A stretch of DNA of 50,295 bases from a virus (Duplodnaviria > Caudoviricetes), in IMG/VR virus record IMGVR_UViG_3300042673_002653, positions 1-50,295 of that record, one strand, 5' to 3'. Shown piece by piece: positions 930-20,146 of the stretch (position 1 is its first letter; every line of letters begins with the position of its first letter). The position numbers and the translations under genes are program-made. A model generated the notes under the pieces. The model was not told where the DNA came from. It searched no databases and saw only the letters and a list, made by a program, of their open reading frames with translations.

Positions 930-1258
930 CAGGCAGCGGCCTTCATTTCAGGGGCGGCCAGCCGGGCCAGCGCCGCATCGCACCAGGCGATCCCGTCGCG
1001 GTGTTCGTCGGCACCCTCGCCCTGCCCTGCGGCTTCATACTCGGCCAGCATGCGGACGTGCCAAGCGCGGCGGGTCGTCATGGTCTCGGCGTCCCGCTCT
1101 TCAGCGGTGCGAAGGCGAGCCCATGCGGCCTTGGTCAGAACGTCGTGGTCGGCGTCGCGCGGATAGGTGCGGTCCAGGTGCGAGATGACTTCCCGGGCTG
1201 CAGCGATCTCGGCTTTCACCGGATCGGCGGTCGGGGTCTGGAGGTGGCGAAGCGACAT
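929..1258 (-). CDS. Hypothetical early phage protein, first gene after PL
   Basis: 109 aa; GGAG RBS; ends KAAA. Confidence 0.75.
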   Translation of the reverse strand: MSLRHLQTPTADPVKAEIAAAREVISHLDRTYPRDADHDVLTKAAWARLRTAEERDAETMTTRRAWHVRMLAEYEAAGQGEGADEHRDGIAWCDAALARLAAPEMKAAA

Positions 1259-1282
1259 GCGTTGGTCTCCGTGTGTGAGAAG

Positions 1283-1333
1283 ACCTTACGGCGGGTAAGA
1301 TTGGCACGCAAGTAAAATCTTACGCATCGTAAG
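1283..1333 (-). promoter_or_regulatory. PL promoter with two repressor operators (OL)
   Basis: Minus strand TTGCGT-17bp-TAAGGT (1311-1283); palindromes CTTAC-GGCGG-GTAAG (1285-1299) and CTTAC-GCATC-GTAAG (1319-1333). Confidence 0.8.
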
Positions 1334-1425
1334 ACATCACACGTCAGTTTCGGACGTGGGGCGGCTCGGGCGGACTCGACTCGCAGCGCGCGAGCGGGAA
1401 TCAGTCGTTAACTTTTGGAGGCAGG

Positions 1426-1770
1426 ATGCCCGTCGTACTGTATTGCGTTGAAGCCACGTGGCGCTGCGGTGAGCAGACTGTGCGGACCCACGTGGTGCAG
1501 ACGGTCGACCGCGCCGAGGCGCTTCGCGCGGGCCGGGACATGGCACGCGGCAATCAGGTTACGCGGGTCCTCGAAGCAACCGGCGACAGCCTTACAGGTG
1601 TCTGGTCGGAACGCGTGATCGCGGAGTTCGAAGAGACCGGCCCGAGCGAAGGGGGGACGGCCTACTTCAAGATCGAGTGCCGGGAGGATGGAGACGTCTG
1701 GAGCCAGGTGCACCCTGAGGAGGGATACAGCGTCACTGCGGCCGAACCATGGGACGCAGACGCCGCCTAG
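1426..1770 (+). CDS. Hypothetical protein (immunity-region moron)
   Basis: 114 aa with GGAGG RBS. Confidence 0.65.
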   Translation: MPVVLYCVEATWRCGEQTVRTHVVQTVDRAEALRAGRDMARGNQVTRVLEATGDSLTGVWSERVIAEFEETGPSEGGTAYFKIECREDGDVWSQVHPEEGYSVTAAEPWDADAA

Positions 1771-1849
1771 ACTCCCGGCGGGATTGTCGGCTAGCGTCGC
1801 CTTTCCCCGCACAATGGCGGGGGATGCCAAAAGCCTAGGGGGGCTTCCT

Positions 1850-2260
1850 ATGACCATCCGCAACACCGTGGCGCTCTGCGCCGCGTCCGCCATGCTGTTC
1901 GCCACGACCGCCTGCACCACGACCGAGAAGGTCAACGTGATGCAGCCTGGCGACCAGGCCATGACCTGCACCCAGCTCCGCGCCGAGTTCGCCAAGCTGG
2001 ATGAGATCAAGGCCGATGGTCAGAGCGACCAAGGCGTCAACGGCGCCAACGTCGCGGCCGTCCTGTTCTTCTGGCCCGCCGCCGTCGGCAACTACATGTC
2101 GGCTCGCGACGCCCTAGCGGTCGCCGAGCGCCGTCACACCCACCTGATGACGATCTACAACGGCAAGAACTGCGACAACCCGGCAAACGCCGACCTGACG
2201 GTCATGGTGCCGTCGAGCCTGCTGGGTCCCATCGAGCGCAGCGCCGCTGGCATGCACTGA
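1850..2260 (+). CDS. Putative lipoprotein
   Basis: Signal peptide with lipobox-like MTIRNTVALCAASAMLFATTA-C; high-GC codon usage; followed by a terminator. Confidence 0.8.
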   Translation: MTIRNTVALCAASAMLFATTACTTTEKVNVMQPGDQAMTCTQLRAEFAKLDEIKADGQSDQGVNGANVAAVLFFWPAAVGNYMSARDALAVAERRHTHLMTIYNGKNCDNPANADLTVMVPSSLLGPIERSAAGMH

Positions 2261-2284
2261 GCCTACGACGCCGCTGAAACGACA

Positions 2285-2312
2285 AACGCCGGCTCCTCAC
2301 GGGGCCGGCGTT
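2285..2312. terminator. Hairpin terminator between convergent genes
   Basis: AACGCCGGCTCC-TCAC-GGGGCCGGCGTT. Confidence 0.75.
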
Positions 2313-2333
2313 CTGGCGTCTGTCGTTTCGGGC

Positions 2334-2564
2334 CTAGCGGCGGAACAGTTTCTCATCCAAACCCGACTGCCGGATCATCGACTTGAGAGTTCCCGGTTTG
2401 CAGGTGTCCGAGGGCCGGTGACCGGCGACGATCACCACCCGCATGACCCCGCCGACGGACCCCCGGTAAATCTTGTGGCTCCCAGCACCTTGCCGGTCTT
2501 GGATGAAGCCGTGTGCCAGGATGATCGCGACGAACTGCTGGAACGTGCAGTTTAGGCGGGGCAA
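2334..2564 (-). CDS. hicA: HicA-family mRNA interferase toxin
   Basis: Probable TTG start; LAHGF...GAGSHKIY...IVAGH...KPGTLKSMIRQSGL matches the HicA pattern with catalytic GSH. Confidence 0.85.
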   Translation of the reverse strand: MPRLNCTFQQFVAIILAHGFIQDRQGAGSHKIYRGSVGGVMRVVIVAGHRPSDTCKPGTLKSMIRQSGLDEKLFRR

Positions 2565-2890
2565 GGAAGGTCGAAACCTGCCTGCAGGGAGACGGGACGC
2601 TCCTCCCGACCCTGAGAAACTCGCTGGTGAGTAGGCGGCAGCAGCAGGTGAACCGTGAGGCGCAGGGCCCACATGGCACGGACGTGGAACGGCGACCGAC
2701 GGCTAAGAAGCTGGCGGCACACCGCGGGCTCCTCTTGGAGCGCAGCCTCGATGTAGGCTTTTACCGCTTCCATCAGAACGGTACGAGCGTTCTCGAAGGT
2801 GTCCGCCTCGACGGCGATATCCAGATCAACGCAGATGGCTTCCCACCCACGTTCATCGCTGCGCGCAAAGCAGCGCAAGGTCTTAAACAT
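2552..2890 (-). CDS. hicB: HicB-like antitoxin
   Basis: WEAICVDLDIAVEADTFENARTVLMEAVKAYIE, partial RNase H fold of HicB; overlaps the hicA start. Confidence 0.75.
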   Translation of the reverse strand: MFKTLRCFARSDERGWEAICVDLDIAVEADTFENARTVLMEAVKAYIEAALQEEPAVCRQLLSRRSPFHVRAMWALRLTVHLLLPPTHQRVSQGREERPVSLQAGFDLPCPA

Positions 2891-3068
2891 CTGCGTCCTC
2901 CTGCCGGCGAGCAAATTTCGAGAGCCCTGCCGAACGCACTTTCACCCTGTGGGTGACACAAGAAGGTGTCAACGCTGGGGCGGTTGCAAATGGACACTGT
3001 TTGCAACGAAGCGTTTCAGTTCGTTGCGCACAAAGCGCGAACTGGTGACCTCCCCAGTATGAGAGGGG

Positions 3069-3506
3069 TCACCGTCGCAGCGGCTCGCCGCGCATCAGGC
3101 CTTCCTTCTGCGCGAACATGAGCTGGCGCAGGTTGACGTCCGCGGGGCACTGGAAGAATGCCTCGAACTGAATGGCGCCGGTGCCGAGCTGCTGTGCGGG
3201 CTGCGCACTGCAGCCGACGGGCGCGAGGAACCGGGAGACGGCAGCGTCGACGTTCCGGACGTCAGGGCGGTTGTATTCCGCCATGCCAAACGTCGCTCCC
3301 TCGACTGCCCCCTGGCCGGCGGCCGAGCCTACCGTCTGCACAATCAGCAGAGACGGGTCAGTCGGGTGCGACCAGACGTTCATCTTGCGGCCGTTGCCGA
3401 TGTCGATCTGTGCTTGGGCGTTGTTGGTGCCGTAGCTAAGCAGGCGCCCTGTCGATGCGCAGCCGGTCAACGCTACGCACAAAAGGGCGAGCGAAAGTGC
3501 TTTCAT
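3069..3506 (-). CDS. Putative lipoprotein (possible superinfection exclusion)
   Basis: MKALSLALLCVALTG-C lipobox; GAGGAG RBS; downstream in the cI operon. Confidence 0.8.
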   Translation of the reverse strand: MKALSLALLCVALTGCASTGRLLSYGTNNAQAQIDIGNGRKMNVWSHPTDPSLLIVQTVGSAAGQGAVEGATFGMAEYNRPDVRNVDAAVSRFLAPVGCSAQPAQQLGTGAIQFEAFFQCPADVNLRQLMFAQKEGLMRGEPLRR

Positions 3507-3517
3507 CGGATCGCTCC

Positions 3518-3964
3518 TCATTGGCTCAGCGGCCGGACCATGATCGCGAGCTGGGCGTCAGCGTTGCGGTCGCCCTCGTCGAGATGGCTGATCAGTCCCG
3601 AATGCTCCTGCGCCAAGCGGCGGCACCGGGCCTTCACTCTTTCGACGACGGCCGTAGCCTGGGCGACGAACTCGGCGTCGGTCGCGGCGTCCGGGATGTC
3701 CTGCAGAGCGGCCTCGGCAAGTTCTGACGCCGTGCCAGCCTGGATTGCCGACTGGACAACACTCGCCGACCATCCGCTGGCCTCGGCGTCCTCACCAAAG
3801 GTCTGGGCCCAGTGCGCCCCGGTCTGTTCGTAGACCCGGTAGCCGAAGGATTTACACATGCCCATCGCGGCGGCGGCCCGTCCGATCCGCTCGCCTTCCT
3901 CGATCACCTCGTCCTGCGTGTAGTCTTGGGCCAGTAAGGCGCCAGCGAGGATCAGGGCGATCAT
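3518..3964 (-). CDS. Putative exported protein
   Basis: N-terminal MIALILAGALLAQD signal-like segment; ATGA overlap with the cI stop. Confidence 0.75.
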   Translation of the reverse strand: MIALILAGALLAQDYTQDEVIEEGERIGRAAAAMGMCKSFGYRVYEQTGAHWAQTFGEDAEASGWSASVVQSAIQAGTASELAEAALQDIPDAATDAEFVAQATAVVERVKARCRRLAQEHSGLISHLDEGDRNADAQLAIMVRPLSQ

Positions 3965-4332
3965 GCTGCTACCGACTTGAGCAAAGCTTCGACGGCGTTG
4001 GCCAAATCGTCCTGGCGGTCTTCGGGAAACGCTGACATCGCGCGAATGACCCGCTCCTGAGGCGGATTGGCCGGCCTGTCGAAAGGCGTCCCCTCACCGG
4101 TCAGAAGCCATGACCAGCTGACCCTAAACTTACGCCCAAACTGGATCGCACGTTGCGGATCATTCAGCCGGGTGGTCTTCGACGCTGAGGGATCCCGCTC
4201 GTATGCCGAGTAGGTGTTCTCGCCCATTTTCAATGATTGGGCAGCGGCTCGCATAGTGTCAAAGCCGGCCGCCTCGCGGGCCCACTTCACCCTCTGCCAG
4301 TCTTCGGCAGCCTCTGACCATCTCGTGTCCAT
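3961..4332 (-). CDS. CI-like repressor (XRE HTH, no S24 peptidase domain)
   Basis: RVKWAREAAGF...TYSAYER...VSWSWLLTGEG; divergent from the cro-like gene; ATG 7 nt after a TAAGAT -10 box (alternative start 4341). Confidence 0.85.
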   Translation of the reverse strand: MDTRWSEAAEDWQRVKWAREAAGFDTMRAAAQSLKMGENTYSAYERDPSASKTTRLNDPQRAIQFGRKFRVSWSWLLTGEGTPFDRPANPPQERVIRAMSAFPEDRQDDLANAVEALLKSVAA

Positions 4333-4339
4333 AGCGGCC

Positions 4340-4407
4340 ATCTTACCGGCCGTAATCTTACCAAGTGTGAGATTGACGTTGCAGCGCGATCTTACTTGCG
4401 GTAAGGC
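4340..4407. promoter_or_regulatory. OR region: three operators with PR and PRM
   Basis: CTTAC-N5-GTAAT (4342-4356), CTTAC-N5-GTGAG (4357-4371), CTTAC-N5-GTAAG (4391-4405). PR is TTGCAG-17-TAAGGC (4379-4407); PRM -10 is TAAGAT (4345-4340). Confidence 0.8.
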
Positions 4408-4413
4408 TTCGCC

Positions 4414-4656
4414 ATGACTGAGACCGTTCGCACCTTCATCGACAAGCTGGATGGCAATGGAGCCGTGGCGAAGGCCACTGGGTATACCGAAGGGGCAGTC
4501 GCTCTGTGGGTTCACCGCAACCGGCTCCCCCGGAACGCTTGGCCCGAGCTGATGAAGGCGTTCTCGCACGTCACGCTGGACAGCTTGCTCGCGCTCGAAG
4601 CTTCGACCGCCGCCCCCGCCAACGACACCCTCCCCCAATCAGAGGCGGCGGCATGA
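4414..4656 (+). CDS. Cro-like HTH regulator
   Basis: FIDKLDGNGAVAKATGYTEGAVALWVHRNRLP, Cro-type; divergent from cI. Confidence 0.85.
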   Translation: MTETVRTFIDKLDGNGAVAKATGYTEGAVALWVHRNRLPRNAWPELMKAFSHVTLDSLLALEASTAAPANDTLPQSEAAA

Positions 4657-5156
4657 CCCATCGCATCGACATTGGGCGTGGCATGGCCGCTCTCATCGAC
4701 GACGCCGACGTCGCCCTGATCGGGGAGCGCCGCTGGCACGCTCGACCCGCGAAATCGAAGACGGGCGTCCAGATCGGCTGGTACGTCCAGCGGCACGATG
4801 CCGGCGGCACGACCTATCTGCACCGAGTGATCATGGGCGCTGGCCCTGGCCAACTGGTCGATCACATCGATGGCGACGGACTGAACAACACCCGCGCGAA
4901 CCTCCGCATCTGCACCCGCGCCCAGAACAACGCCAATCGCGTCTGCGCCAAGGGCTCGTCTGGCTATCGCGGCGTTCATCCTGAGCCCCGCAATGGCCGC
5001 TGGTATGCGCGGATCGAGGTCAATGGTCGCCCTCGCTCGCTCGGATGCTTCGCCACTCCCGAAGAAGCAGCACGAGCCTATGACGCCGGCGCTCTGGCCG
5101 CTCATGGCGAATTCGCACGGCTGAATTTCCCTAACGAACATCAGAGGGCGGCCTGA
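4653..5156 (+). CDS. HNH endonuclease with AP2 domain
   Basis: LHRVIM...VDHIDGDGLNNTRANLR, then SSGYRGV...WYARI...LGCFATPEEAARAYD...HGEFARLNFP. Confidence 0.92.
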   Translation: MTHRIDIGRGMAALIDDADVALIGERRWHARPAKSKTGVQIGWYVQRHDAGGTTYLHRVIMGAGPGQLVDHIDGDGLNNTRANLRICTRAQNNANRVCAKGSSGYRGVHPEPRNGRWYARIEVNGRPRSLGCFATPEEAARAYDAGALAAHGEFARLNFPNEHQRAA

Positions 5157-5158
5157 CC

Positions 5159-5494
5159 ATGTGCGACTTCGCTCCTGGGGATGAGGTGGTGTGCGTCCGG
5201 GGCGGGCTCGGCTCGTTCCCCGGCATCGGCTGGGTCTGCCTTGCCGAAGGCGCGACCTACACAATCGCCGCCGTTTGGCAGAAAGGCGAGATCGGTGAAA
5301 CTGGCCTCCCGTGCGGGACCGCCATGGTGCAACTTGTCGAGTTCGGCTCGCTCCGCGCCGGTCCGAACGACAGTCGCTGCGGGTTCGCCGCCGACCGCTT
5401 CCACAAGGTTGAGCGGCCCGCGCTCGGCGCTTGGCTCTCCACCGAGAACACCATTGAGGAGCCCAAGCGCGCCCCGGTTCGGGAGCCCGTCTGA
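5159..5494 (+). CDS. Hypothetical phage protein
   Basis: 111 aa; FAPGDEVVCV N-terminus typical of small phage proteins. Confidence 0.7.
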   Translation: MCDFAPGDEVVCVRGGLGSFPGIGWVCLAEGATYTIAAVWQKGEIGETGLPCGTAMVQLVEFGSLRAGPNDSRCGFAADRFHKVERPALGAWLSTENTIEEPKRAPVREPV

Positions 5495-5604
5495 GATGCC
5501 CCTCTCCCCTAGGCGACGCCCTCTCCCCCCCCTCCAGGGTGTCGCTCGCGCAGGCCGGGGAGCCGACGTCTCGGCCTGCGCACCTTCGATCATGGGAGGC
5601 GCCT

Positions 5605-5916
5605 GTGCTTCCCGCTGAGCGCGCTGCGATCTTCAACGCTCGCGCCGCCTTCGCCTGCATTGGTCACATCGAGAAGGCGTTCGTTGACGGCAACGAGGCG
5701 GGGGCGCGGGAAGCGCTGAGCCAACTGGCCGTCGTGGTGACCCCGGCAATCCCGGTCCTCGACGCCATCTTGGCCGCCCATTTCGAGACCGCACAGGCTC
5801 GTGATCTCACGGAGCTCACCCTGTCCCGGTTCTTCCCCCGCGTGGCCGAGCCACAACCTGACGCCGCGAACGATCACGTCTCGCCTCCTGAACAACCCAC
5901 CCCGTCTGTCGCCTGA
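5605..5916 (+). CDS. Hypothetical phage protein
   Basis: GTG start after GGGAGG; ends AANDHVSPPEQPTPSVA. Confidence 0.65.
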   Translation: MLPAERAAIFNARAAFACIGHIEKAFVDGNEAGAREALSQLAVVVTPAIPVLDAILAAHFETAQARDLTELTLSRFFPRVAEPQPDAANDHVSPPEQPTPSVA

Positions 5917-5954
5917 GCGCGGCTGCCGGTCACCCAAAGAAGGCCCGAGAACAA

Positions 5955-6416
5955 ATGGGACACGAGCACCGCACCACCATAAGCCCGCGTGAGCATGCGC
6001 GTCTGGCCGGGGATCTGATCGACGCTTGCGGAGGGCTTGCCGAAGCATCCCGAGCCTGCCGGGTCAGCGAGGGCGTCCTCTCGACCTACCAGAACCCCAA
6101 CCGGCCGGAGTGCAACATGCCGGCGGACGTGATGTCCGACCTAGAGAAGCACTGCGGGAAGCCGATCTATTCCGGTTTCATCCGTCGCAACCTCGGTCTG
6201 ACGGTCGAGCCGGGCAACCTGCGAGACCTGGGCTGCCTCCTTACCGAAGAGGGCGCCGACTTCCAGGCCTTCATCCGCCGAGCCCTCGCTGATGGCGTCC
6301 TATCAGCCAACGAGATCGACACCGCGCGCCAAGAGCTGGCCGCGGCCGAGAACGTGCTGGCTCGCTGCCGTGCGTCTCTGGACGCTGCTGAGCTGTCGCT
6401 GCCGCGCGCCGCCTGA
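5955..6416 (+). CDS. CII-like phage regulatory protein
   Basis: DLIDACGG...LSTYQNPNRPECNMPADV...ALADGVLSANE; position after cro. Confidence 0.6.
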   Translation: MGHEHRTTISPREHARLAGDLIDACGGLAEASRACRVSEGVLSTYQNPNRPECNMPADVMSDLEKHCGKPIYSGFIRRNLGLTVEPGNLRDLGCLLTEEGADFQAFIRRALADGVLSANEIDTARQELAAAENVLARCRASLDAAELSLPRAA

Positions 6417-6469
6417 CGACCACCAACGGGACCGACCGGCCCGTTGACCGGTCGAAACAGGAGGGCCAG

Positions 6470-7126
6470 ATGGCCAAGACACTGAAAGCCGTGAACGACG
6501 ACGAATACCCCGCCGAGCAGGGGACCATCGGCAGCATCCCGAACGAGCCGTCCAACGGCCTGCCCAGCCATGACGAAATCCGCATGGCGGCGCACGAACA
6601 GATCCAGTGGAACCTGAAGCGCAAGGCCCTGAACGATCAGATCAGCGCCTTCCGCAAGGGCCTGAAGGCCAAGGGCCACATCCTGGGCGCGCTCGACGAC
6701 GAGGTGAAAAAGCTCGACTGGACGCCGGAGGAATACAAGGCCGCCCGCGCCGCCACCGACCACTACGCCGAGGCGATGGCTCAGCCCGTCGGCACCCAGC
6801 TGGAGCTCTACGGCACCGAGGCCACGCCGGACCCGGTTCGCATTCAGTTGAAGTGGCGCCAGCTGGGCGTGAAGCACGGCATCGCCGGCGTCGGCTGGGC
6901 GAACGAACCGCCTAAGGACTGCCCCTTCGACTGCGCTCAGTCCTATGGCGAGGGCCACGAGGAAGGCCAGGCCACCGTCCGCCGGTCGTTCGAACTGCGG
7001 TTGGCCCAGAACGCTGCTGCGGCCGCGAATGACCCGGCCGCCGAGGAAGACGAGCAGGTCGACCTGGAGGAGGTCATCGCCAACGACGACAGCGACGACA
7101 GCGAACACCAGCAGAGCGCCGCCTGA
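6470..7126 (+). CDS. Phage protein with GapR/DUF2312-like helical domain and RMF-like C-terminal motif
   Basis: AGGAGG RBS; domain resemblance by eye only. Confidence 0.55.
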   Translation: MAKTLKAVNDDEYPAEQGTIGSIPNEPSNGLPSHDEIRMAAHEQIQWNLKRKALNDQISAFRKGLKAKGHILGALDDEVKKLDWTPEEYKAARAATDHYAEAMAQPVGTQLELYGTEATPDPVRIQLKWRQLGVKHGIAGVGWANEPPKDCPFDCAQSYGEGHEEGQATVRRSFELRLAQNAAAAANDPAAEEDEQVDLEEVIANDDSDDSEHQQSAA

Positions 7127-7581
7127 TGTCGGGGCTGGCCTTCACCATCCCCGGCGAGCCTCGCGGTAAAGGCCGGCCCCGCGCCACCGTGTTCAAGGGC
7201 GGGGGCAACGTCCCCGCCCGGGCGCGGATGTATTCGGACTCGAAGACCGTCAGCTACGAGAACCTCGTGAAGCTGGCGGCTTCGCACGCTCTGGGTGACA
7301 GAGATCCGTTGGACGTTCCGCTGACGGTCATCGTCACCGCCCGCATGGTCCCGGCCGCGTCCAGTAGCGCCAAGAAGCGCGCCGCGATGCTTGCTGGAGA
7401 GATCGCCCCGACCAAGCTCCCCGACCTCGACAACGTCGTGAAGGCCGTCCTCGACGGCTGCAACAAGGTCGCCTTCCGAGACGACGCCCTCGTGGTCAGC
7501 CTGATCGCTCGCAAGCGCTACGCCGAGGTCGCGGGCGTCGACGTCGAAATCTCCCCCACCATTCTCCCGAGGGCAGCATGA
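7126..7581 (+). CDS. rusA: RusA-family Holliday junction resolvase
   Basis: FTIPGEPRGKGRPR...PTKLPDLDNVVKAVLDGCNKVAFRDDALV. Confidence 0.92.
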   Translation: MSGLAFTIPGEPRGKGRPRATVFKGGGNVPARARMYSDSKTVSYENLVKLAASHALGDRDPLDVPLTVIVTARMVPAASSSAKKRAAMLAGEIAPTKLPDLDNVVKAVLDGCNKVAFRDDALVVSLIARKRYAEVAGVDVEISPTILPRAA

Positions 7582-8339
7582 CCCACCCCCAATCCGCCGA
7601 AATGGATGCCGAGTTCACCCGCCTCTGGAAGAAGGGGACCCCGCTCGCCACGATCCAAGCCCTCCTCGCCATTGGCCAGGATCGGGCCAAGGCTATCCGA
7701 GTCCGGCTCGACCTCCCGGCTCGGGTGCAGGGCTGGACGCCGGAACAGGACGCGCTGGCGCTGAAGCTCCGTGCCCAAGGCATGGGCGGGACGGAGATCG
7801 GTCAGGCGGTCGGCAAGTCTCGGTATTCTGTGGTCGGCCGTCTCTGGCGTCTCAGCGGTGGCAAGGAAGCGCCGCCGAAGCCGAAGGCTCCGAAGGCTCC
7901 GAAGGTGGCGCGCTCGCATGTTCGCCCCCCAAAGCCCGGCCCACAGAACAAGCCCGGCGCGGTCTTTGGCGTCCTGTCGCAGTCCAAGTCCGATGCTACG
8001 CCTGAGAGACGGGCGGAGAAAGCGGCCGAGGGTCAGAAGATCATCGCCCGCGCTGAGCAGACGGCGGTCGAGAGCCCCAACGCTCGCTCCTTCCTCAAGA
8101 CGGGTCTGCACGACTGCCGCTGGCCCATCGGGGAAGGCCTGTCGATGCTGTCCTGCTGCAATCGGGTCCAGCGCGGCTCCTACTGCGCCGGACACGCTCG
8201 CCTCGCCTACGCGACCCAGGAACCGCCGGAGCCGCGCCGCATCTTGCGCGCCGCGTCCAGCCTGACCCGGCACGACCGGGTGTCCACGCCCAAACCCAAG
8301 GCCGCCAACGATGACAGGCTCTGGGATCAGGTCGCATGA
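7578..8339 (+). CDS. gcrA: GcrA-family cell-cycle regulator homolog
   Basis: WTPEQDALALKLRAQGMGGTEIGQAVGKSRYSVVGRLWRL HTH and C-terminal CRWPIGE...CC...SYCAGHARLAY. Confidence 0.85.
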   Translation: MTHPQSAEMDAEFTRLWKKGTPLATIQALLAIGQDRAKAIRVRLDLPARVQGWTPEQDALALKLRAQGMGGTEIGQAVGKSRYSVVGRLWRLSGGKEAPPKPKAPKAPKVARSHVRPPKPGPQNKPGAVFGVLSQSKSDATPERRAEKAAEGQKIIARAEQTAVESPNARSFLKTGLHDCRWPIGEGLSMLSCCNRVQRGSYCAGHARLAYATQEPPEPRRILRAASSLTRHDRVSTPKPKAANDDRLWDQVA

Positions 8340-8671
8340 CGCCGCAACAGAACGCCTGCCTGATCGCAATCCGCACACTGACCGTCGACGGCGTCGCTCC
8401 GACGGTCCGCGAGCTGATGGCTCATCTGGGTGTCAGATCGTCCAGCCGGGTTCAGGAGATGATCGAAGCCTTGGAAGAGCAGGGCTTCATCCGCCGCCGC
8501 CCTGGTCGCTACCGCTGCATTGAGATCGTGGAGCGGTACGGTTCTGGCCTGTCTGACGCCCGCATCGCGTCCATGTCTGACGAAGCCTTGGAGAGCGCGC
8601 ACGCTCGCATCGGGGCCGCCCTGACCCATCGTCGCGCTCTGTCTCAAAGCATGGGGGAGATGGCCGCATGA
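8336..8671 (+). CDS. LexA-type winged-helix DNA-binding protein without peptidase domain
   Basis: MTPQQ...GVAPTVRELMAHLGVRSSSRVQEMIEALEEQGFIRR. Confidence 0.85.
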   Translation: MTPQQNACLIAIRTLTVDGVAPTVRELMAHLGVRSSSRVQEMIEALEEQGFIRRRPGRYRCIEIVERYGSGLSDARIASMSDEALESAHARIGAALTHRRALSQSMGEMAA

Positions 8672-9015
8672 GCCGAGCCGAGAACCGCATCATCGACCGG
8701 ATCGACCGCCAGCGGGAACGGAAGGCGTCGACCAAGGTCCGAGAAGTCCGCCGCCTCCAGATCGGCGAACATGCCCGCGCGTCCATCAACTGCACGGCGC
8801 TGGGCTACGACGACCCCGCCGAACGGCTGGAATGGCTGAAGGCGTCGGCATGGAAGATCCGCGAGTTGTTCGTCTCCGTTCAGGACGACGCCGGCGCCGT
8901 GGCCTTCTTCGGCTCCCTCGCTTCTGCCCCCGATAGCGTCTTGCCGAGAGCCATTGCGCGGGCTGAGGCCGAACGGGTCTTCACCCAGGCTGCGAATGAT
9001 CGGGAGGCGGGATGA
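8668..9015 (+). CDS. Hypothetical phage protein
   Basis: 115 aa; ATGA overlaps at both ends. Confidence 0.75.
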   Translation: MSRAENRIIDRIDRQRERKASTKVREVRRLQIGEHARASINCTALGYDDPAERLEWLKASAWKIRELFVSVQDDAGAVAFFGSLASAPDSVLPRAIARAEAERVFTQAANDREAG

Positions 9016-9617
9016 CGCCCGAGCTTCCGACTGTCGATGGCGGCTTCCGCATGATCCTCGCCGACCCGCCGTGGCATCACGCCAGCCGGTCGCCGAAGGG
9101 GCAGACGCGACGCTCGCCTTCGCACCACTACCTCACTATGCCTCTCGCCAACATCAAGGCGCTGCCAGTCGCTGAGATCGCAGCAAAGGATTGCCATCTG
9201 TTCCTCTGGACCACGGGGCCGCACCTCCAGCAGGCCTTTCAGGTCATGACCGCATGGGGCTTCCGCTATTCCAGCCTCGCCTTCGTCTGGGTGAAGCGCC
9301 GGAAGCAGCCGGACGGTGACCATGACGGCGTCTTGTTCATGGACCGCCGCGATCTCTTCACCGGCATGGGCTACACCACGCGCCAGAACGCCGAGCTGGT
9401 CCTGCTGGGCCGCCGAGGAAATCCCGCCCGTCTGGCCAAGGACGTCCATCAGGTCATCGCTGCGCCGCGTCAGGAACACAGTCGGAAGCCCCGCGAAGTC
9501 CATAGCCGGATCGAACGCTACTGCGCTGGCCCCCGCCTTGAGATGTTCGCCCGCGCCCCCCGCGAAGGCTGGACCGTCTGGGGCAACGAGACCGACAAGT
9601 TCAGGGAGGCCGCGTAG
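9012..9617 (+). CDS. MT-A70 family adenine methyltransferase
   Basis: ILADPPW, LFLWTT, WGFRY, WVK, GMGYTTRQNAE, EHSRKP and LEMFAR motifs. Confidence 0.92.
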   Translation: MTPELPTVDGGFRMILADPPWHHASRSPKGQTRRSPSHHYLTMPLANIKALPVAEIAAKDCHLFLWTTGPHLQQAFQVMTAWGFRYSSLAFVWVKRRKQPDGDHDGVLFMDRRDLFTGMGYTTRQNAELVLLGRRGNPARLAKDVHQVIAAPRQEHSRKPREVHSRIERYCAGPRLEMFARAPREGWTVWGNETDKFREAA

Positions 9618-11093
9618 ATGGACCCCCGCGACCAAGAGACCGCCCTGCCCTCAAACCTGGAGGCGGAGCAGGCCCTGCTGGGCTGCCTGATGTTCGACAA
9701 CGCCGTGATGGAGCGACTGCCCGACCGGCTGCGCGGCTCGCACTTCTTCGAGCCCTTCCACCAGCGCCTCTACGACGCGATCCAACTGACCATCGGCCAA
9801 GGCATTACAGCCGAGCCGACGATACTCATGGACCGGTTCACCGCCGATCCGGCCTTTGTCGAGTTCGGGGGGCTTCGCTACCTCGCCGATTTGATGGACC
9901 GCGCGCCCCCGGCGGCGAACGCGCCCGGCTACGCCCGATCGATCTACGACCTGGCCATGCGCCGCGACCTCATCCGGATCGGCGGCGAGATCGCGTTCCA
10001 CGCCGTGAACCCCGACCTCCCTGCGACCGATCACCTCGCCAACGCCGAGGGAGCCCTTTTCACACTCGCTGAGACCGGAGAGCAGTCCAAGGGTGTCGTC
10101 ACCTTCCGAGAGGCCATGAGCGGCGCTCTGGCGATGGCTGAGCAGGCCTTCCGCCGGGACGGCGCGCTAGCGGGGCTGGCGACGCACCTGAACGACCTGG
10201 ACCAGAAGCTGGGCGGCCTTCACCCTTCGGACCTGCTGATCCTCGCCGGGCGCCCGTCGATGGGCAAGACCGCGCTAGCGACCAACATCGGCTTCAACAT
10301 CGCCAAGCGGTATCGCTTCGAGATCGACGCCACGGCGCCCGGCGGCATCCGTCGGCTGGACGGCGGCCGGGTCCTGTTCTTCTCGCTGGAGATGAGCCCC
10401 GAACAGCTGGCCATGCGGATCATCGCCGACGCCTCGGGCGTCTCAGGTGACCGCATCCGCAAGGGCAGGATCAGCCGCGACGAGTTCGCCAAGATGAAGG
10501 AGGTCGAGGCCCTTCTCGCCGAAATCCCGCTCCTGACCGAAGCGACCGGCGGCATCCCCATCGGGAAGCTCTGCGCCATCGCCCGGCGCCAGCACCGGAA
10601 GGCCCCGCTGAACCTCATCATCGTGGACTATCTGCAGCTCGCCACGACGAACCAGAGCGCCGGCAAGGGCCGGGTGCAGGAGGTGTCCGAGATCACCGGC
10701 GGCCTGAAGGCCCTGGCCAAGGAGCTCAACGTCCCGATCATCGCCCTGTCCCAGCTCTCGCGACAGGTCGAGCAGCGGGACGATAAGCGGCCCCAGCTAT
10801 CCGACCTCAGGGACTCGGGCTCCATCGAGCAGGACGCCGACGCAGTCCTCTTCGTCTACCGCGAGAGCTACTACCTGGGCCGGGCCGAACCAAAGGAGGG
10901 ATCGTCCGAACACCTGCTCTGGCAGGCCGAGATGGCGATCAAGGAGCATGAGGCCGAGGTCATCATCGGGAAGCAGCGCCACGGCCCCATCGGCACGGTG
11001 AAACTGGCCTTCGACGCCGACACGACCCGGTTCGGTAACCTCGCGCGCGGGTCCGACTATGAGACCGCTCGCATGCCCTACGGTGACAACTGA
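9618..11093 (+). CDS. dnaB: Replicative DNA helicase DnaB (phage)
   Basis: Walker A GRPSMGKT, FSLEM, IIVDYLQL, LSQLSR, DLRDSGSIEQDAD, KQRHGP. Confidence 0.97.
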   Translation: MDPRDQETALPSNLEAEQALLGCLMFDNAVMERLPDRLRGSHFFEPFHQRLYDAIQLTIGQGITAEPTILMDRFTADPAFVEFGGLRYLADLMDRAPPAANAPGYARSIYDLAMRRDLIRIGGEIAFHAVNPDLPATDHLANAEGALFTLAETGEQSKGVVTFREAMSGALAMAEQAFRRDGALAGLATHLNDLDQKLGGLHPSDLLILAGRPSMGKTALATNIGFNIAKRYRFEIDATAPGGIRRLDGGRVLFFSLEMSPEQLAMRIIADASGVSGDRIRKGRISRDEFAKMKEVEALLAEIPLLTEATGGIPIGKLCAIARRQHRKAPLNLIIVDYLQLATTNQSAGKGRVQEVSEITGGLKALAKELNVPIIALSQLSRQVEQRDDKRPQLSDLRDSGSIEQDADAVLFVYRESYYLGRAEPKEGSSEHLLWQAEMAIKEHEAEVIIGKQRHGPIGTVKLAFDADTTRFGNLARGSDYETARMPYGDN

Positions 11094-12115
11094 TGGCGGC
11101 TCCCCCATACCAGAAGCTCTTCTGGGGCTCCTATCACAAGCATACCGCCCACCTGGGCCACGCCCGCGAGCATGGGGCCTATCTCCTCCTGATCGGAGCC
11201 CTCTGGAACAACGAGGGCAAGCTTCCGGCCGATGACGACGTTCTGGCTGGATACGCCAAGCTGACGACCAAGGAGTGGCTGGCGATCAAGCCCAAGCTCA
11301 TGCCGCTGTTCAAGGTCGTCAGAGGCAAGCTGATGCAACCGCGCGTGACCGAGGATCTGGCAAAGTACCGAGACACTTCCGGTAAGCGGAAATCGGCCGG
11401 AAAAACGGGTGGCGAGGCAAGTGCCGGAAATCGTGCATTAAATCGGCAAGCAAATGCTTCCGATTTGCCGACAAAACCAGAACCAGAACCAAAAGAAGAA
11501 AGTACCCCCAGCCCCCAAGGGGGCGAGATCGACCTCAGGCGCTTCGCGAAAGGCCTGCTGATCGCGGCTGACGCTGGGTGCAGCTTCGCACTGATGGTCG
11601 AGCGCATCCACCAGGCCCAGCCGGTCGTCGACGGCAAGCGTCGCTCGACGGCGCCGGATGTGCAGCGGGCTCTCGGCGGCGCACTAAAGCGCGGCGGAAT
11701 GCCGTCGGCGATCTGGTCGGCGGTCCGGGCCTTCTACGCCCTGCCCGCTTCGACCAAGGACGGGGGCCAGTTCGCCAACGGCGCGGCCGTGGTGCTGAAC
11801 AAGGACCGATGGAAGGAATACCTCCCGGACGGGGCGAGCGCCGCGCCGATTGCAGATGTCACCCCGGTCTACGACGGCCCCCCCGACATCCGAGCCTGGG
11901 TCGCCACCCACCACGGTGAGCCCTACGCCCGATCCTACGTCGATCCGGCCCGATGGGACGCCACGAACCGCGCCCTGCTGGCCGCCAACCCGTTCGCCGT
12001 CAGCAAGCTGGCCCGAGACCTCGCCGATATCACAGCCCGATGGAAGTTCTCCGTCACCCTGGCCACCGCCAACGACCCGAAGCCTGACCTGTTCGCCCAA
12101 GGAGCCGCAGCATGA
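11093..12115 (+). CDS. Replication initiator, DUF1376/YdaU-like
   Basis: PYQKLFWGSY...HLGHAREHGAYLLLI...W...GKLPADD N-terminal domain; KPEPEP linker. Confidence 0.8.
   Translation: MAAPPYQKLFWGSYHKHTAHLGHAREHGAYLLLIGALWNNEGKLPADDDVLAGYAKLTTKEWLAIKPKLMPLFKVVRGKLMQPRVTEDLAKYRDTSGKRKSAGKTGGEASAGNRALNRQANASDLPTKPEPEPKEESTPSPQGGEIDLRRFAKGLLIAADAGCSFALMVERIHQAQPVVDGKRRSTAPDVQRALGGALKRGGMPSAIWSAVRAFYALPASTKDGGQFANGAAVVLNKDRWKEYLPDGASAAPIADVTPVYDGPPDIRAWVATHHGEPYARSYVDPARWDATNRALLAANPFAVSKLARDLADITARWKFSVTLATANDPKPDLFAQGAAA
11385..11505. other. Candidate phage replication origin inside the initiator gene
   Basis: AT-rich patch with inverted repeat AAATCGGCAAGCA-AA-TGCTTCCGATTT and A-rich AACCAGAACCAGAACCAAAAGAAGAAAG; lambdoid origins lie within the initiator gene. 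Confidence 0.45.
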
Positions 12116-12825
12116 GCACCCGATCCCTAGTCGAGATCAACCACGACTTCACCTGGCGGATGGACGAGGGCTTTTTGCCAGCGCTCCAGCGCTACTTGGC
12201 GTCGGGCAGCCAGCACGAAGCCGATGGACTGAGGCTCCTCTACGGCCTCAACGTCCTGACCACGCGGCATCACTCCAGCGAATACCGGATCGCCGAGGGG
12301 ACCGACGGCTTTCCCGCCCCGGCGCCGCAGCCTCACGTCTTCCTCGACTGCGACGGAGTGCTGGCGGATTTCGACACCTACGCTGAGGCCTATTTCGGGA
12401 TGGAGCCCCGTCTTTACGAAGAGCTGATGGGCTCCGAACACTTCTGGGCCGAGCTGGAAGCGAAGGGCGACTTCTACCGCAACCTGCCACTGATGGCGGA
12501 TGCTCGCGAACTGGTCGATGGCGTTCGGCACCTGAACCCCACAATCCTGACCGGATGCCCGCGCGGCAACTGGGCGCAGGCACAGAAGGTGGCTTGGGCC
12601 GAAGAGCACTTCCCAGGCATCCCGATCATCACCTGCCGGTCGTCGGAAAAGCGCCTGCACGCCAAGCCGGGTGATGTCCTGATCGACGACTGGAACCAGC
12701 ACCGCGCCCGCTGGATCGAACACGGCGGAGTCTGGATCACCCACACCGACGCGAAGACGTCCCTCGCCGCCCTCTGGGCCCACTATCCCGACTTGGCTCC
12801 GAAGAAGCGAAAGGCCGCCGCATGA
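12112..12825 (+). CDS. HAD-family 5'(3')-deoxyribonucleotidase-like protein with N-terminal extension
   Basis: VFLDCDGVLADF, ILTG, QKVAW, LIDDW motifs. Confidence 0.85.
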   Translation: MSTRSLVEINHDFTWRMDEGFLPALQRYLASGSQHEADGLRLLYGLNVLTTRHHSSEYRIAEGTDGFPAPAPQPHVFLDCDGVLADFDTYAEAYFGMEPRLYEELMGSEHFWAELEAKGDFYRNLPLMADARELVDGVRHLNPTILTGCPRGNWAQAQKVAWAEEHFPGIPIITCRSSEKRLHAKPGDVLIDDWNQHRARWIEHGGVWITHTDAKTSLAALWAHYPDLAPKKRKAAA

Positions 12826-13643
12826 GCAAGCTGTCCAAATCCAAGGCTCGCGCCAACCGTCGGCGGTATGCCAAGCCCTCCCTTCCCCGCGCCATCGGGG
12901 CGAACGACAATCACCCGTCGGCGTCGAACGACAACGCGGCGCCGGTGTCGATCGGTGGGGTGACCCTGACCGAGAACCAGGCCCGCCGGTTCGCCATCGC
13001 GACGGAACAGCTCGCCTCGGAAAGCATGGACCTCCGCCGCGCCGGCCAGCGGACGATGGAGGCCCTGGAGGCTGAGACGACGGCCAAGCGCATCGCCGGG
13101 GAGGTTGAGGCCGGTCTGACCGAGCGCCGCGGACTCGAAGCCCTGCGCGGGCTGGAGATCGGAGCGTCCAAGGTCGAGGGCGCCGTCGGGGCTCCGAAGA
13201 TCACGCGGGACGGGCTTGAGACCCTGCTGACGGCCGGGTCGATCACCCGGATCCAGCACGCCGCCGGGATGCTCTACCGCCAGGAATACGAGCGCATCGA
13301 TCCGGAGAAGCTGCTGACCCCGCCCCAGTTCGATCCCGAAAAGGTCCGCTCAGTCCACGGAGGCGAAGGCTGGGACCAGAAGCGACGGGAGATCGAGGAA
13401 CGGGTCTTCGGCATCCACTGCATGATCTGCGGGGTGGAGCCGCCGAAGGGGAAGCAGCGGGCGGCCATGCCGAACCTGCCGAAGGGGCACCCGGCCATGC
13501 GGGCCATCGACGCTCTTGAGCGGATTGCGGGGCGTGGGGACAATGTTCAAGAAATCTCGGCTTCGGGTTCAGTTCGCGCTCGGTTGCGAGAGGACTTGAT
13601 CTTCGCGCTCGACGCGTGCGCTATCGTCTACGGACTGGACTGA
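12822..13643 (+). CDS. Putative late-gene regulator (Q-like position)
   Basis: Last early gene; ITRIQHAAGMLYRQEYE and C-terminal LIFALDACAIVYGL; precedes a promoter-terminator pair. Confidence 0.55.
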   Translation: MSKLSKSKARANRRRYAKPSLPRAIGANDNHPSASNDNAAPVSIGGVTLTENQARRFAIATEQLASESMDLRRAGQRTMEALEAETTAKRIAGEVEAGLTERRGLEALRGLEIGASKVEGAVGAPKITRDGLETLLTAGSITRIQHAAGMLYRQEYERIDPEKLLTPPQFDPEKVRSVHGGEGWDQKRREIEERVFGIHCMICGVEPPKGKQRAAMPNLPKGHPAMRAIDALERIAGRGDNVQEISASGSVRARLREDLIFALDACAIVYGLD

Positions 13644-13652: not shown

Positions 13653-13922
13653 ATGAAGACGACAGCTATCGCAGCGATCCTGTTCGCACTCTCGTTGGGG
13701 GCAGCCGCGCCGGCTGTCTCCAAGCCTCCAAGCCAGTGTGACGATGCAATTGACGACTACAACCGCTCGGTTGGTGATCTTTCCTCGTACCTGTCGCGGT
13801 ACTCGAGCTGCGTGCAGAACAGCCAAGGCTATGACGACTGTTCGACCGAGTTTCGGCGCGTTCGAAACACTCAGAGCGATTTTGAGGCCGCAGTCAGCAA
13901 CTTCCAGTCTGAGTGCGACTGA
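13653..13922 (+). CDS. Small secreted Cys-containing protein (moron)
   Basis: Signal peptide MKTTAIAAILFALSLGAAAPAVS; 4 Cys; lower GC. Confidence 0.75.
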   Translation: MKTTAIAAILFALSLGAAAPAVSKPPSQCDDAIDDYNRSVGDLSSYLSRYSSCVQNSQGYDDCSTEFRRVRNTQSDFEAAVSNFQSECD

Positions 13923-13934
13923 CGAGCCCCGCGC

Positions 13935-13963
13935 TTGACAGCGGACAGGTAATCGGTGACATC
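13935..13963 (+). promoter_or_regulatory. Putative late promoter PR'
   Basis: Perfect TTGACA at 13935-13940 with a weak -10; upstream of a terminator, the tRNA and terminase. Confidence 0.55.
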
Positions 13964-13990
13964 CAGCAAATCGGGCTTTCCGCCCAGACC

Positions 13991-14020
13991 AAGGCTCCTC
14001 CCTCGCGGCGGGGCCTTTTT
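13991..14020 (+). terminator. tR'-like intrinsic terminator
   Basis: AAGGCTCC...GGGGCCTT followed by a T-run. Confidence 0.7.
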
Positions 14021-14099
14021 CGTTTCCGGCGCCGACCATGTTCTGACCTGCGGGGATGGCTGGATCGGCTGAGAGAGACGAAAGCACACCCTCTTTCTT

Positions 14100-14174
14100 A
14101 TCCGACTAGCTCAGCAGGTAGAGCGCCGGTCTCCAAAACCGGTTGGCGAGGTTCGAGTCCTCGGTCGGGTGCCA
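14100..14174 (+). tRNA. tRNA-Trp (CCA)
   Basis: Acceptor ATCCGAC/GTCGGGT, D arm GCTC/GAGC, anticodon arm CCGGT-CTCCAAA-ACCGG, T arm CGAGG-TTCGAGT-CCTCG, discriminator G plus encoded CCA. Confidence 0.93.
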
Positions 14175-14188
14175 GTCGCGGAGGCCTG

Positions 14189-14686
14189 ATGGCCCGCCCC
14201 TCCTTGTTCAACGAGGCGATTGCCGGTGAAATCTGCGAGCGCATCGCCGACGGCGACAGCCTCCGATCCATCTGCGAGGGTGCCGACTATCCCGAGCGTC
14301 GGACGGTTTTCAGGTGGCTCGCCGATCCTCAGCATGCCGAGTTCCGTCGCCAGTACGCGCTCGCGCGCGAGGCCTCGGCGGACGCAGACGACGACGACAT
14401 TCGCGACATGGCCAAGCGGGTCGAAGCTGGAAAGCTGGAACACCAGGCCGCTCGGGTCGCGATCGACGCCAAGAAGTGGTCCGCCGGCAAGCGGAAGCCG
14501 AAGGTCTACGGGGACAAGATGGCCTTGGTCGGCGGCGGCAAGGACGATGCGCCGATCAGCCATTCCCATGCCTTCGACCTGAAGGACGCCAGCGACGAGG
14601 AGCTTGAAGTCATTGAGCGCTTCGTTCGCCGTCGAGCTGCCGACGCTGGAAGAGATCAGGGCGGAGCGGGAGAGGCGGAGGGCTGA
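14189..14686 (+). CDS. Terminase small subunit
   Basis: MARPSLFNEAIAGEICERIADGDSLRSIC...KWSAGKRKPKVYGDK (Sf6 gp1-like); GGAGG RBS. Confidence 0.9.
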   Translation: MARPSLFNEAIAGEICERIADGDSLRSICEGADYPERRTVFRWLADPQHAEFRRQYALAREASADADDDDIRDMAKRVEAGKLEHQAARVAIDAKKWSAGKRKPKVYGDKMALVGGGKDDAPISHSHAFDLKDASDEELEVIERFVRRRAADAGRDQGGAGEAEG

Positions 14687-16175
14687 AGCCGAACGCGCTC
14701 GACTGGTCAAGGATCAGGGCGCGATCCGTGCACGCTGCGACGGCCTGCACGGGTTCATCGAAGAGCACTGGTCTATTCTGGAGCCCAAGCGACCGTTCGT
14801 GACGGGCTGGGCGCTTCAGGCCATGTGCCGGCATCTCGAAGCGGTCACCGACGGCAAGATCCAGTTCCTGCTGATGACCGTGCCGCCGGGGATGATGAAG
14901 TCCCTGCTGCTGGTGTTCTGGACCGCATGGGAATGGGGACCGCGCGCCCGGCCCGACCTTCAGACGCTGGCCACCTCCTACAGCCAGGCCAACGTCCTCC
15001 GCGACAACCTCAAGCTCCGGCGCCTAATCGAGAGCGATCAGTACCGGGCCCTCTGGCCTCTGAACCTGCGGGCCGATCAGAACGCCAAGGGCAAGTTCGA
15101 GAACACCGACAACGGGTTTAGCGAGGCCCGTCCATTCAGTTCCATGACCGGCGGCCGGGGTGACCGGGTCAAGGTCGATGACCCCCACTCGACCGAGAGC
15201 GCCGAGTCCGACGCCGAGCGCGAGACCGCCGTCCGCATCTTCCGCGAAGGCATCTCCGACCGGATGAACGACGTGCAGACGTCCGCCATCGTCATCATCA
15301 TGCAGCGGCTGCACGCCAAGGACGTCGCGGCGGTCGCCTTGGAACTGGACATCGGCTTCGTCCACCTGAACCTCCCGATGGAGTTCGAGGCCGAGCGCGT
15401 CGGCGACGACGGCAAGGTGAGCGGCGGACCGTGCCGGACCTACGTCGACGGCGAACTGTTCTTCGAGGATCCGCGCATTCGCGAAGGCGAACTGCTCTTC
15501 CCCGAGCGCTTCCCCCTCGCCCAGGTCGCCAAGCTCAAGAAGGCCAAGGGCTCATACGCATGGGCTGGGCAATATCAGCAGCGCCCCTCCCCTCGTGATG
15601 GCGGCATATTCCTCCGGGAGTGGTTCAAGACGGCGTCGGTCCTGCCCGCAGGGATGAAGACTACCGTCCGGGCGTGGGATATCGGCGCAACAGAGGGCGG
15701 CGGAGATCCAAGTGCTGGCGTCCGCTGCACGATGGTCGGGACCGGCGACGAGGCCTCATACTACTTCACAAACTGCCGGACAGATCAGTGGAGCCCCGCA
15801 CAGTTCGAGGCCGAGCTTAAGCTGACCGCCGCCGCTGACACTATGGCCGTGACGGTCAGATTGCCTCAAGACCCCGGCGCGGCCGGCAAGGGCTACGTCC
15901 AGACCCTGGTCAAGAAACTGCAGGGCTATTCCGTGAAGGTCGCCCAGCCGACCGGATCCAAGCTCACGCGCGCAACCGCGCTGGCCACCCAGGCTGAGGC
16001 CGGGAACGTATTCATCCTGACAACGGGGGACGCCATGCGAGACGCCTGGATTGAACCGTTCGTGGACGAGCTGTGCGTCTTCCCGTCCGGGGCCCATGAC
16101 GACCAAGTCGACGCCGCCGCCGACGCCTTCAACGAACTGGCCCTCGGCTCCGTCTACAGCCTGGACAACGTCTGA
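14604..16175 (+). CDS. Terminase large subunit
   Basis: VPPGMMKS Walker A, TGGRGD, VDDPH Walker B, IMQRLH, YQQRP, RAWD, HDDQVDA; start may be TTG 14613. Confidence 0.95.
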   Translation: MKSLSASFAVELPTLEEIRAERERRRAEAERARLVKDQGAIRARCDGLHGFIEEHWSILEPKRPFVTGWALQAMCRHLEAVTDGKIQFLLMTVPPGMMKSLLLVFWTAWEWGPRARPDLQTLATSYSQANVLRDNLKLRRLIESDQYRALWPLNLRADQNAKGKFENTDNGFSEARPFSSMTGGRGDRVKVDDPHSTESAESDAERETAVRIFREGISDRMNDVQTSAIVIIMQRLHAKDVAAVALELDIGFVHLNLPMEFEAERVGDDGKVSGGPCRTYVDGELFFEDPRIREGELLFPERFPLAQVAKLKKAKGSYAWAGQYQQRPSPRDGGIFLREWFKTASVLPAGMKTTVRAWDIGATEGGGDPSAGVRCTMVGTGDEASYYFTNCRTDQWSPAQFEAELKLTAAADTMAVTVRLPQDPGAAGKGYVQTLVKKLQGYSVKVAQPTGSKLTRATALATQAEAGNVFILTTGDAMRDAWIEPFVDELCVFPSGAHDDQVDAAADAFNELALGSVYSLDNV

Positions 16176-18372: not shown

Positions 18373-18382
18373 GGACATCGCC

Positions 18383-19648: not shown

Positions 19649-19660
19649 GGAGCCACGACA

Positions 19661-20134: not shown

Positions 20135-20146
20135 GGGGATCAGACC

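Follow-up and report, generated by a model that had tools for sequence, protein, structure and literature searches.

The window analyzed here, the 50,295-bp IMG/VR record IMGVR_UViG_3300042673_002653, is a complete provirus record (CheckV completeness, 100%; G+C content, 66%) of a temperate phage of Brevundimonas-type bacteria, and the element in question is a short tail found at the C terminus of several of its early proteins. A preliminary description of the window had claimed that six early proteins carry the tripeptide Ala-Asn-Asp (AND) close to their C termini and that these tails are genetically encoded mimics of the transfer-messenger RNA (tmRNA, or ssrA) tag, which the host protease ClpXP and its adaptor SspB would turn over as a timer, or which would titrate SspB. 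We determined how firmly the motif stands, how it is distributed, and which readings of it fit the evidence.

AND tails in the window and in related phages

Gene calling with a codon log-likelihood model gave 72 genes, 71 of them with a complete C terminus, and the Pfam and PHROGs annotations matched the protein names used in the preliminary description. An AND tail is defined below as A-N-D within the last 20 residues of a protein, and an AA end as Ala-Ala in the final two positions. All six tails were present as written; they are given here with the start of AND counted in residues from the C terminus.

4615..4653, + strand: tail PANDTLPQSEAAA of the Cro-position protein (gene 4414-4656, + strand), a weak Cro/YdaS-type helix-turn-helix (HTH) protein by Pfam/PHROGs; AND codons 4618-4626, at -12
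5863..5913, + strand: tail AANDHVSPPEQPTPSVA of a 103-aa protein (gene 5605-5916); AND codons 5866-5874, at -16
7076..7123, + strand: tail IANDDSDDSEHQQSAA of a 218-aa protein (gene 6470-7126); AND codons 7079-7087, at -15
8301..8336, + strand: tail AANDDRLWDQVA of the GcrA-like protein (gene 7578-8339, + strand; Pfam/PHROGs); AND codons 8304-8312, at -11
8989..9012, + strand: tail AANDREAG of a 115-aa protein (gene 8668-9015); AND codons 8992-9000, at -7
12065..12112, + strand: tail TANDPKPDLFAQGAAA of the DUF1376/primosomal-type replication protein (gene 11093-12115, + strand; Pfam/PHROGs); AND codons 12068-12076, at -15

The 103-aa protein had no Pfam or PHROG match, and the 218-aa protein has an additional AND at 7025-7033 (-33). 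The two parts of the window that are compared below are the following.

582..13643, both strands: early region, which holds 13 of the 17 AA-ended proteins of the window
13653..40466, + strand: late region with terminase, portal, major capsid, tape measure, and other genes, used as an internal control

All six tails lie in the rightward early operon, where they make up 6 of the 15 genes. AND tails were present on 6/37 early or accessory proteins and on 0/34 late proteins (p = 0.026), while the same gene caller found them on only 2 of 413 genes of a related host, sampled as 400 kb of a Brevundimonas chromosome (G001:C1:300001-700000, L007-L026; Fisher p = 1.8e-4). The six tails among 71 window proteins compare with 0.30 expected from composition, and shuffling each 20-residue tail with its own N and D kept gave a mean of 0.41 and a maximum of 4, with six or more in 0/3000 shuffles. 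The enrichment in early proteins over late proteins, host proteins, and shuffled background was thus borne out, more strongly than the preliminary description had stated. A six-frame scan of the window found 17 A-N-D tripeptides, 14 of them inside called genes, against 3.4 expected from the composition of the 71 proteins. One late-region gene (37883-38209) encodes MANDPRDLF at 38135-38143, 24 residues from the C terminus and therefore beyond the 20-residue limit; its product has no final A and was left uncounted. In the host proteins of the same 400 kb, AND was underrepresented (12 seen versus 21 expected by composition; Poisson p = 0.02), and the host protein at 243391-243717 of that stretch ends in VAANDTKTISKA.

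Searches with the DUF1376 and 218-aa proteins retrieved two Brevundimonas prophages (L001 and L002) and six IMG/VR contigs (L027 and L033 to L037). Counts pooled over the window and these eight related (pro)phage loci, made with a single gene caller, were as follows (AND tails/genes called).

Window: 6/70
L001: 8/31
L002: 2/35
L027: 8/30
L033: 5/18
L034: 7/30
L035: 7/32
L036: 4/20
L037: 5/29

The nine loci together had AND tails on 52/295 proteins, while the remaining five orderings of A, N, and D summed to 8; against the host rate the pooled count gave a Fisher p of 5.6e-19, a value in which orthologues are not independent events. With their last 20 residues removed, the 52 tagged proteins fell into 20 BLASTP clusters, and since some of these clusters are surely remote homologues, we consider at least a dozen tagged families, instead of 20, to be a fair reading of the sequences. 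The tagged families comprise HTH/Cro-type proteins, four small proteins with no assigned function, an 846-aa DNA methylase, an HNH-like protein, DUF1376 proteins, proteins of 320 aa encoded in the leftward operon, and GcrA, the last in the window only.

The motif persisted where the rest of the protein had diverged. Among eight Cro-position proteins that were 21 to 32% identical, the invariant columns were A, N, D, and the final A-A, and nothing else. The DUF1376 protein had AND in the last 20 residues of 47 of 120 database homologues and ND in 8 further ones, with an AA end in 78; the counts for the remaining A/N/D orderings were 0, 0, 7, 1, and 0. When 70 near-full-length members of the family were aligned, conservation was 70, 73, and 67% in the columns for A, N, and D and 84 and 89% in the final two, compared with a mean of 53%. 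Where D was lost, N tended to persist (ANS, ANT, ANM). The tail of the 103-aa protein was retained in L033, L034, and L036 and had become ANT in L035, and 6/7 members of the BLAST cluster of the 218-aa protein were tagged. The family of the 115-aa protein (8668-9015; homologues P0122-P0126, L001 5433-5786, and others) showed an invariant AAND, present in 6/6 database homologues and 7/7 cluster members. After AAND come 4 or 5 residues, with G, E, and D prevalent, and the end is never AA; a scan of viral contigs with this protein gave no match. A 63-aa family ends in AND-x3-4-W-[IV]-[AG].

The GcrA-like protein of the window was the only tagged one among nine such proteins of the related loci (1/9). 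Its relatives in L033 (5226-5906), L034 (11079-11750), and L036 (11106-11738) end in W-D-x-x-R-[VA]-A with no AND, and in the window copy AAND stands immediately upstream of an L-W-D-Q-V-A end which these relatives match. Because the window copy is the sole tagged member and its AAND precedes an end common to the relatives, this tail resembles a recent gain.

The shape of the tails was described from the 50 unique ones of the nine loci. AND was preceded by A in 26, by P in 7, and by S or T in 8, and it was followed by D, N, or E in 28/50. The number of residues after AND ranged from 4 to 15; it was most often 8 (17 tails), and 12 formed a secondary peak (8 tails). In the host tag it is 10. The end was AA in 29 tails and VA in 7, and any A stood last in 39.

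A K/QPDLF element adjoins AND in replication-region proteins (ANDPKPDLFAQGAAA, QPDLFAANDTPPKETAA, QADLFGSAA, QPDLFPVNDTTDRDRAA). Sites of this type were located in the DUF1376 tail of the window (KPDLFAQ, 12077-12097), in L001 (11017-11394), in L027 (11017-11391), and in L028 (4068-4846), and DLF occurred in the last 20 residues of 29/120 DUF1376 homologues. The element resembles QL[SD]LF, the beta-clamp-binding motif. Many of the distant members of the 218-aa protein family (P0127-P0190) end in a hydrophobic residue plus H or N (VH, LH, VN), which looks like a different, lineage-specific C-terminal motif on that family.

Controls for composition, DNA-level signals, and gene overlap

The nine bases of the motif vary between sites (GCC/GCG, AAC/AAT, GAC/GAT), and their flanks are unrelated; we therefore place the signal in the protein and not in the DNA. 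At 24 AND sites of four related phages, codon choice tracked genome usage, and orthologues differed synonymously. The unrelated flanks, the genome-like codon use, and the synonymous changes together rule out a DNA-level repeat or regulatory site. Capture of a tmRNA gene sequence was likewise ruled out, as comparison of the host tmRNA gene with the window gave chance matches of 11 to 16 nt only, none of them at the tails. A composition artefact is excluded by the tail shuffles and by the permutations of A/N/D order. With these controls, the sequence phenomenon is firmly established.

The preliminary description had further listed early proteins that end in AA and had noted that head and tail proteins do not. 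Every listed protein does end in AA; the AA-ended early genes start at 582, 929, 1426, 3961, 4414, 4653, 5955, 6470, 7126, 8336, 9012/9138, 11093, and 12112. AA ends were found on 17/37 early or accessory proteins versus 0/34 late ones (p = 1.8e-6), and on 22/413 host proteins.

The same description had cautioned that a ribosome-binding site (RBS) combined with an ATGA stop/start overlap can generate E-A-A ends, and this effect proved to be real but too small to produce the excess of AA ends in the phage. Many E-A-A ends fall on GAGG, a Shine-Dalgarno-type sequence upstream of an overlapping ATG, and host AA ends were about 3-fold more frequent in coupled genes (7/72 and 6/51) than in uncoupled genes (8/268). 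At 4-nt stop/start overlaps, however, AA ends were found in 9/12 early phage genes versus 7/72 host genes (p = 5e-6); in uncoupled genes the figures were 4/19 versus 8/268 (p = 0.005), and among late genes with an ATGA overlap, 0/3. The host and late-gene controls thus rule out dual coding as the whole cause of the AA ends, to which it contributes in part. The further statement that such overlaps do not account for AND was upheld, since the motif lies 21 to 48 nt upstream of the stop codon, outside the RBS of the next gene.

AA ends were also common in early genes of other alphaproteobacterial phages that lack AND tails (L030, 11/26; L029, 6/12; L028, 5/11), and Caulobacter phage DMCA (L032) had them on 17/94 proteins. 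The AA end is a wider habit, and AND is an addition to it within one lineage.

Host tag machinery and interpretation of the tails

The two Brevundimonas genomes that carry L001 and L002 (G001 and G002, respectively) have one alpha-type tmRNA gene each. The host tag was read from the Rfam tmRNA match, as ARAGORN did not detect the permuted tmRNA. The tmRNA reading frames encode ANDNFAGEVALAA and ANDNFAGEYAVAA, which are preceded by the Ala of the charged tmRNA, and the Brevundimonas consensus is (A)ANDNFAGE[VY]A[LV]AA. These tags are the Caulobacter tag, AANDNFAEEFAVAA (PMC9393093), with small changes. In both genomes sspB lies about 120 nt from the tmRNA gene (G001:C1:742075-742963; G002:C2:180538-181406), the SspB protein is clearly orthologous to the Caulobacter SspB of known structure (2QAS/2QAZ; E = 3e-56), and a ClpX with a zinc N-domain is encoded. 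In the window we found no SspB and no tmRNA gene of the phage's own; tRNA-Trp was the sole RNA gene found. The phage tails are in frame within their genes and end at ordinary stop codons, and so do not represent true cotranslational tagging by tmRNA. All six contain AND, the same as the start of the tags of the L001 and L002 hosts.

Disorder was assessed by model for one of the six window proteins. The AlphaFold2 model of the Cro-position protein has a five-helix domain at residues 5 to 65, while tail residues 67 to 80 have a predicted local distance difference test (pLDDT) value of <50, so that this tail is predicted to be disordered and accessible. Complex prediction with host SspB (residues 7 to 135) and residues 46 to 80 of the Cro-position protein gave a score of 0.51 (runs, 0.51, 0.51, and 0.48), against 0.02 for the best of three controls, with a contact agreement between runs of ≥73% and a partner pLDDT of ≥58. 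The mark used was passed by 51/78 solved complexes and 2/108 mismatched pairs; passes at a score of ≤0.60 came from only 5 of those 78 solved complexes and from all 4 passing mismatches (of 180).

We favor, with moderate confidence, the reading that the phage genes themselves encode mimics of the tmRNA tag in two parts, an SspB site plus a ClpX end (for A-A, the C-motif-1 type), which would make the early proteins unstable. Comparison gives good support to the mimicry part of the original claim: the signal is at the protein level, is specific for residue order, probably lies on disordered tails, is kept in diverged orthologues and placed on unrelated early proteins, and agrees in its opening residues and its final two with the tag of related hosts that have SspB and ClpX. 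The part concerning turnover needs restriction: either a timer or SspB titration would fit, and the family of the 115-aa protein is never AA ended, so that a plain ClpX degron cannot describe every tail. What we infer, namely binding by SspB, degradation by ClpXP, and a regulatory purpose, draws on roles known from the literature. According to PMC9963277, the SspB core binds the seven residues at the tag's start and the SspB tail binds the ClpX N-domain, and the adaptor lowers the Michaelis constant (KM) and raises the maximal rate (Vmax). Deletion of sspB in Caulobacter is described as slowing the degradation of an ssrA-tagged protein (PMC9393093), and a weak ClpX end joined to a good SspB site (DAS+4) is described as giving degradation only with SspB (PMC8138137).

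By analogy, the substrate-binding domain of host SspB would bind (A)AND on the disordered C-terminal tail, and SspB's own tail would tether the adaptor to the N-domain of ClpX. The ClpX pore would next engage the free A-A or V-A end, 4 to 15 residues downstream of AND, leading to unfolding of the captured early protein and its degradation by ClpP. In this view, early switch, DNA-modification, and replication proteins would have received this portable degron from the phage lineage, and no virion protein would have. Such early proteins would have short lifetimes, and the capacity of SspB and ClpXP would govern their levels.

Several observations weigh against this reading. Half of the window tails have no AA end (AA, three tails; VA, two; AG, one). 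Shine-Dalgarno/ATGA dual coding overlaps with some of the AA excess. The N-F-A which follows AAND in the host tag is not retained, in that N follows AND in 9/50 tails and F at +2 is not kept; beyond (A)AND and the terminal A-A, the tail sequences are unlike the tag. The predicted SspB-tail complex lends weak support; a like complex (2QAZ) has already been solved, and the pass may reflect recall. Caulobacter SspB and its own degron are described as being used orthogonally to the Escherichia coli pair (PMC8138137), which implies that at least one of the two pairs relies on determinants outside the AAND common to both. Distribution is restricted as well. Caulobacter phage DMCA, which has a similar early region, had AND tails on 0/94 proteins, and the less close loci fetched by the initiator protein, L028, L029, L030, and L031, had 0/11, 0/12, 0/26, and 1/38. 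In a search of 301 genomes of the host's family, an AND tail was present in 0/18 DUF1376 hits besides that of G001, and only 3/64 distant representatives of the 218-aa protein family had one.

The DMCA, L028-L031, and DUF1376 counts rule out that Caulobacterales phages have AND tails in general, and the 3/64 figure rules out that the entire 218-aa protein family has them. Given their near-absence in DMCA and in L028 to L031, AND tails are a trait of a lineage and not a need of phages on these hosts. This fits a degron strategy, yet it shows that the strategy is optional.

Three other explanations have to be set against the two-part tag mimic. According to one, which we hold to be unlikely, (A)AND and A-A are read by some other partner, such as ClpAP, Lon, FtsH, or a phage hub protein, and the likeness to the tag is partial or coincidental. 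The match to the tag is indeed limited to three or four residues plus the terminal AA, and PMC8138137 states that ClpAP, Lon, and FtsH also degrade ssrA-tagged proteins; conserved features of single subclasses, such as the W-[IV]-[AG] ends of the 63-aa family or the K/QPDLF element that adjoins AND in replication proteins, could likewise reflect another reader. The motif is nevertheless tag-like both in its start and in its distance from a tag-like C terminus, a phage SspB-like protein was searched for and not found, and the SspB-tail prediction, weakly supported though it is, scored far above its controls. A still less probable explanation is that the tails bind SspB mainly to occupy or redirect the adaptor, either in competition with tmRNA-tagged host proteins or in such a way that one tailed protein shields the others. 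The 115-aa protein family, with AAND, four or five variable residues, and never an AA end, has the look expected of a binder that is not degraded, and several tagged proteins are coproduced from one operon. Titration, however, needs a single abundant binder and not tails on up to eight different proteins per phage, and the A that ends 39 of the 50 unique tails, as part of AA in 29, would be purposeless in a pure competitor.

The third explanation, that the tails are a by-product of composition, of RBS/ATGA dual coding, or of some gene-end element in the DNA or RNA and have no function as peptides, appears to us very improbable, and the controls largely refute it. In its favor, A, D, E, and P abound in the tails, E-A-A ends do coincide with Shine-Dalgarno sequences before overlapping starts, and coupled host genes are AA ended more often than uncoupled ones. 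Shuffles that keep composition do not reproduce the six tails, however, and the other A/N/D orderings are not enriched; AND lies outside the RBS and its codons follow genome usage; and the AA excess remains in uncoupled early genes and is absent from late genes. Some residual probability was assigned to none of these readings.

The tails were compared with known systems. Like the tmRNA tag acted on by SspB and ClpXP in E. coli and Caulobacter, they start with (A)AND, stand at the extreme C terminus, end mostly in A-A, and have a similar spacing of elements. They differ in being encoded in the gene instead of being added by trans-translation, and in that the stretch from AND to AA varies with the protein family and bears no relation to the tag, with a spacing of 4 to 15 and with some families lacking AA. 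Mycobacteriophages with integration-dependent immunity carry C-terminal ssrA-like tags on Int and on the viral form of Rep (Broussard et al. 2013, as described in PMC9635641); these too are phage-encoded degradation tags on genetic-switch proteins, thought to act via ClpXP. The mycobacteriophage tags, as described there, consist of the C-terminal end only, to which the tails studied here add the adaptor-binding AAND; the tails, moreover, are found on 5 to 8 proteins in most of the phages, including replication and methylase proteins, whereas the window integrases are untagged (tyrosine integrase, ending in RENG; serine recombinase, ending in SLFSR). In integration-dependent immunity attP is located within the repressor gene, and integration takes the tag off; the repressor-like protein of the window ends in SVAA. 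Engineered SspB-dependent degrons such as DAS+4, as PMC8138137 presents them, are likewise built from an element that binds SspB, a spacer, and a ClpX end that is weakened or variable, and can serve as a model for tails with VA, IA, or G at the end; these degrons are synthetic, and the phage tails are natural and diverse. PMC8138137 lists lambda O and MuA as ClpXP substrates and lambda CII as having a C-terminal degradation signal. In these cases, as would hold here, host proteolysis sets the lifetime of switch or replication proteins; their degrons are individual and unrelated, unlike the one motif shared by many phage proteins. Full-text searches of a literature collection with few subscription journals listed no paper on a phage or cellular protein that genetically encodes both the SspB- and the ClpX-binding part of the tag.

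If the tails work as two-part tag mimics, the virus makes the life span of all its early proteins depend on a single quality-control pathway of the host. The roughly 50 natural tail variants could then map the tolerance of alphaproteobacterial SspB and ClpXP to spacing (4 to 15) and to the end (AA, VA, IA, G), and they would provide a ready-made degron toolkit for Caulobacterales and a link between trans-translation load and phage development. As a speculative and rather doubtful extension, the phage may have spread a portable copy of both halves of the tag over its whole early program (5 to 8 proteins in most genomes, at least 12 unrelated families), so that the levels of Cro, replication, and methylase proteins would read out free SspB and ClpXP capacity. 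A load of trans-translation or proteotoxic stress would then stabilize all early proteins together and act as a stress sensor for the decision between lysis and lysogeny, with the 115-aa protein family, which has AAND and no ClpX end, as a nondegradable competitor that tunes it.

Other features of the window

In a phage collection the window had no close relative, its DnaB gene being the sole match. The remaining genes annotated from Pfam and PHROGs are listed below.

3961-4290, - strand: repressor-like protein, C terminus SVAA
4653-5156: HNH-AP2 protein
5955-6416: CII-like protein
7126-7581: RusA
8336-8671: LexA-type DNA-binding protein
9012-9617: MT-A70
9618-11093: DnaB
12112-12825: NT5C-like nucleotidase
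14.6-40.5 kb: terminase, portal, major capsid, and tape measure
43914-45110, - strand: tyrosine integrase, C terminus NARENG
45684-47303, - strand: large serine recombinase, C terminus SLFSR
48958-50295: ParB-methylase

The tRNA-Trp (CCA) gene lies at 14100-14174, between the early region and the terminase gene, and this one provirus carries two integrase types, a tyrosine integrase and a large serine recombinase.

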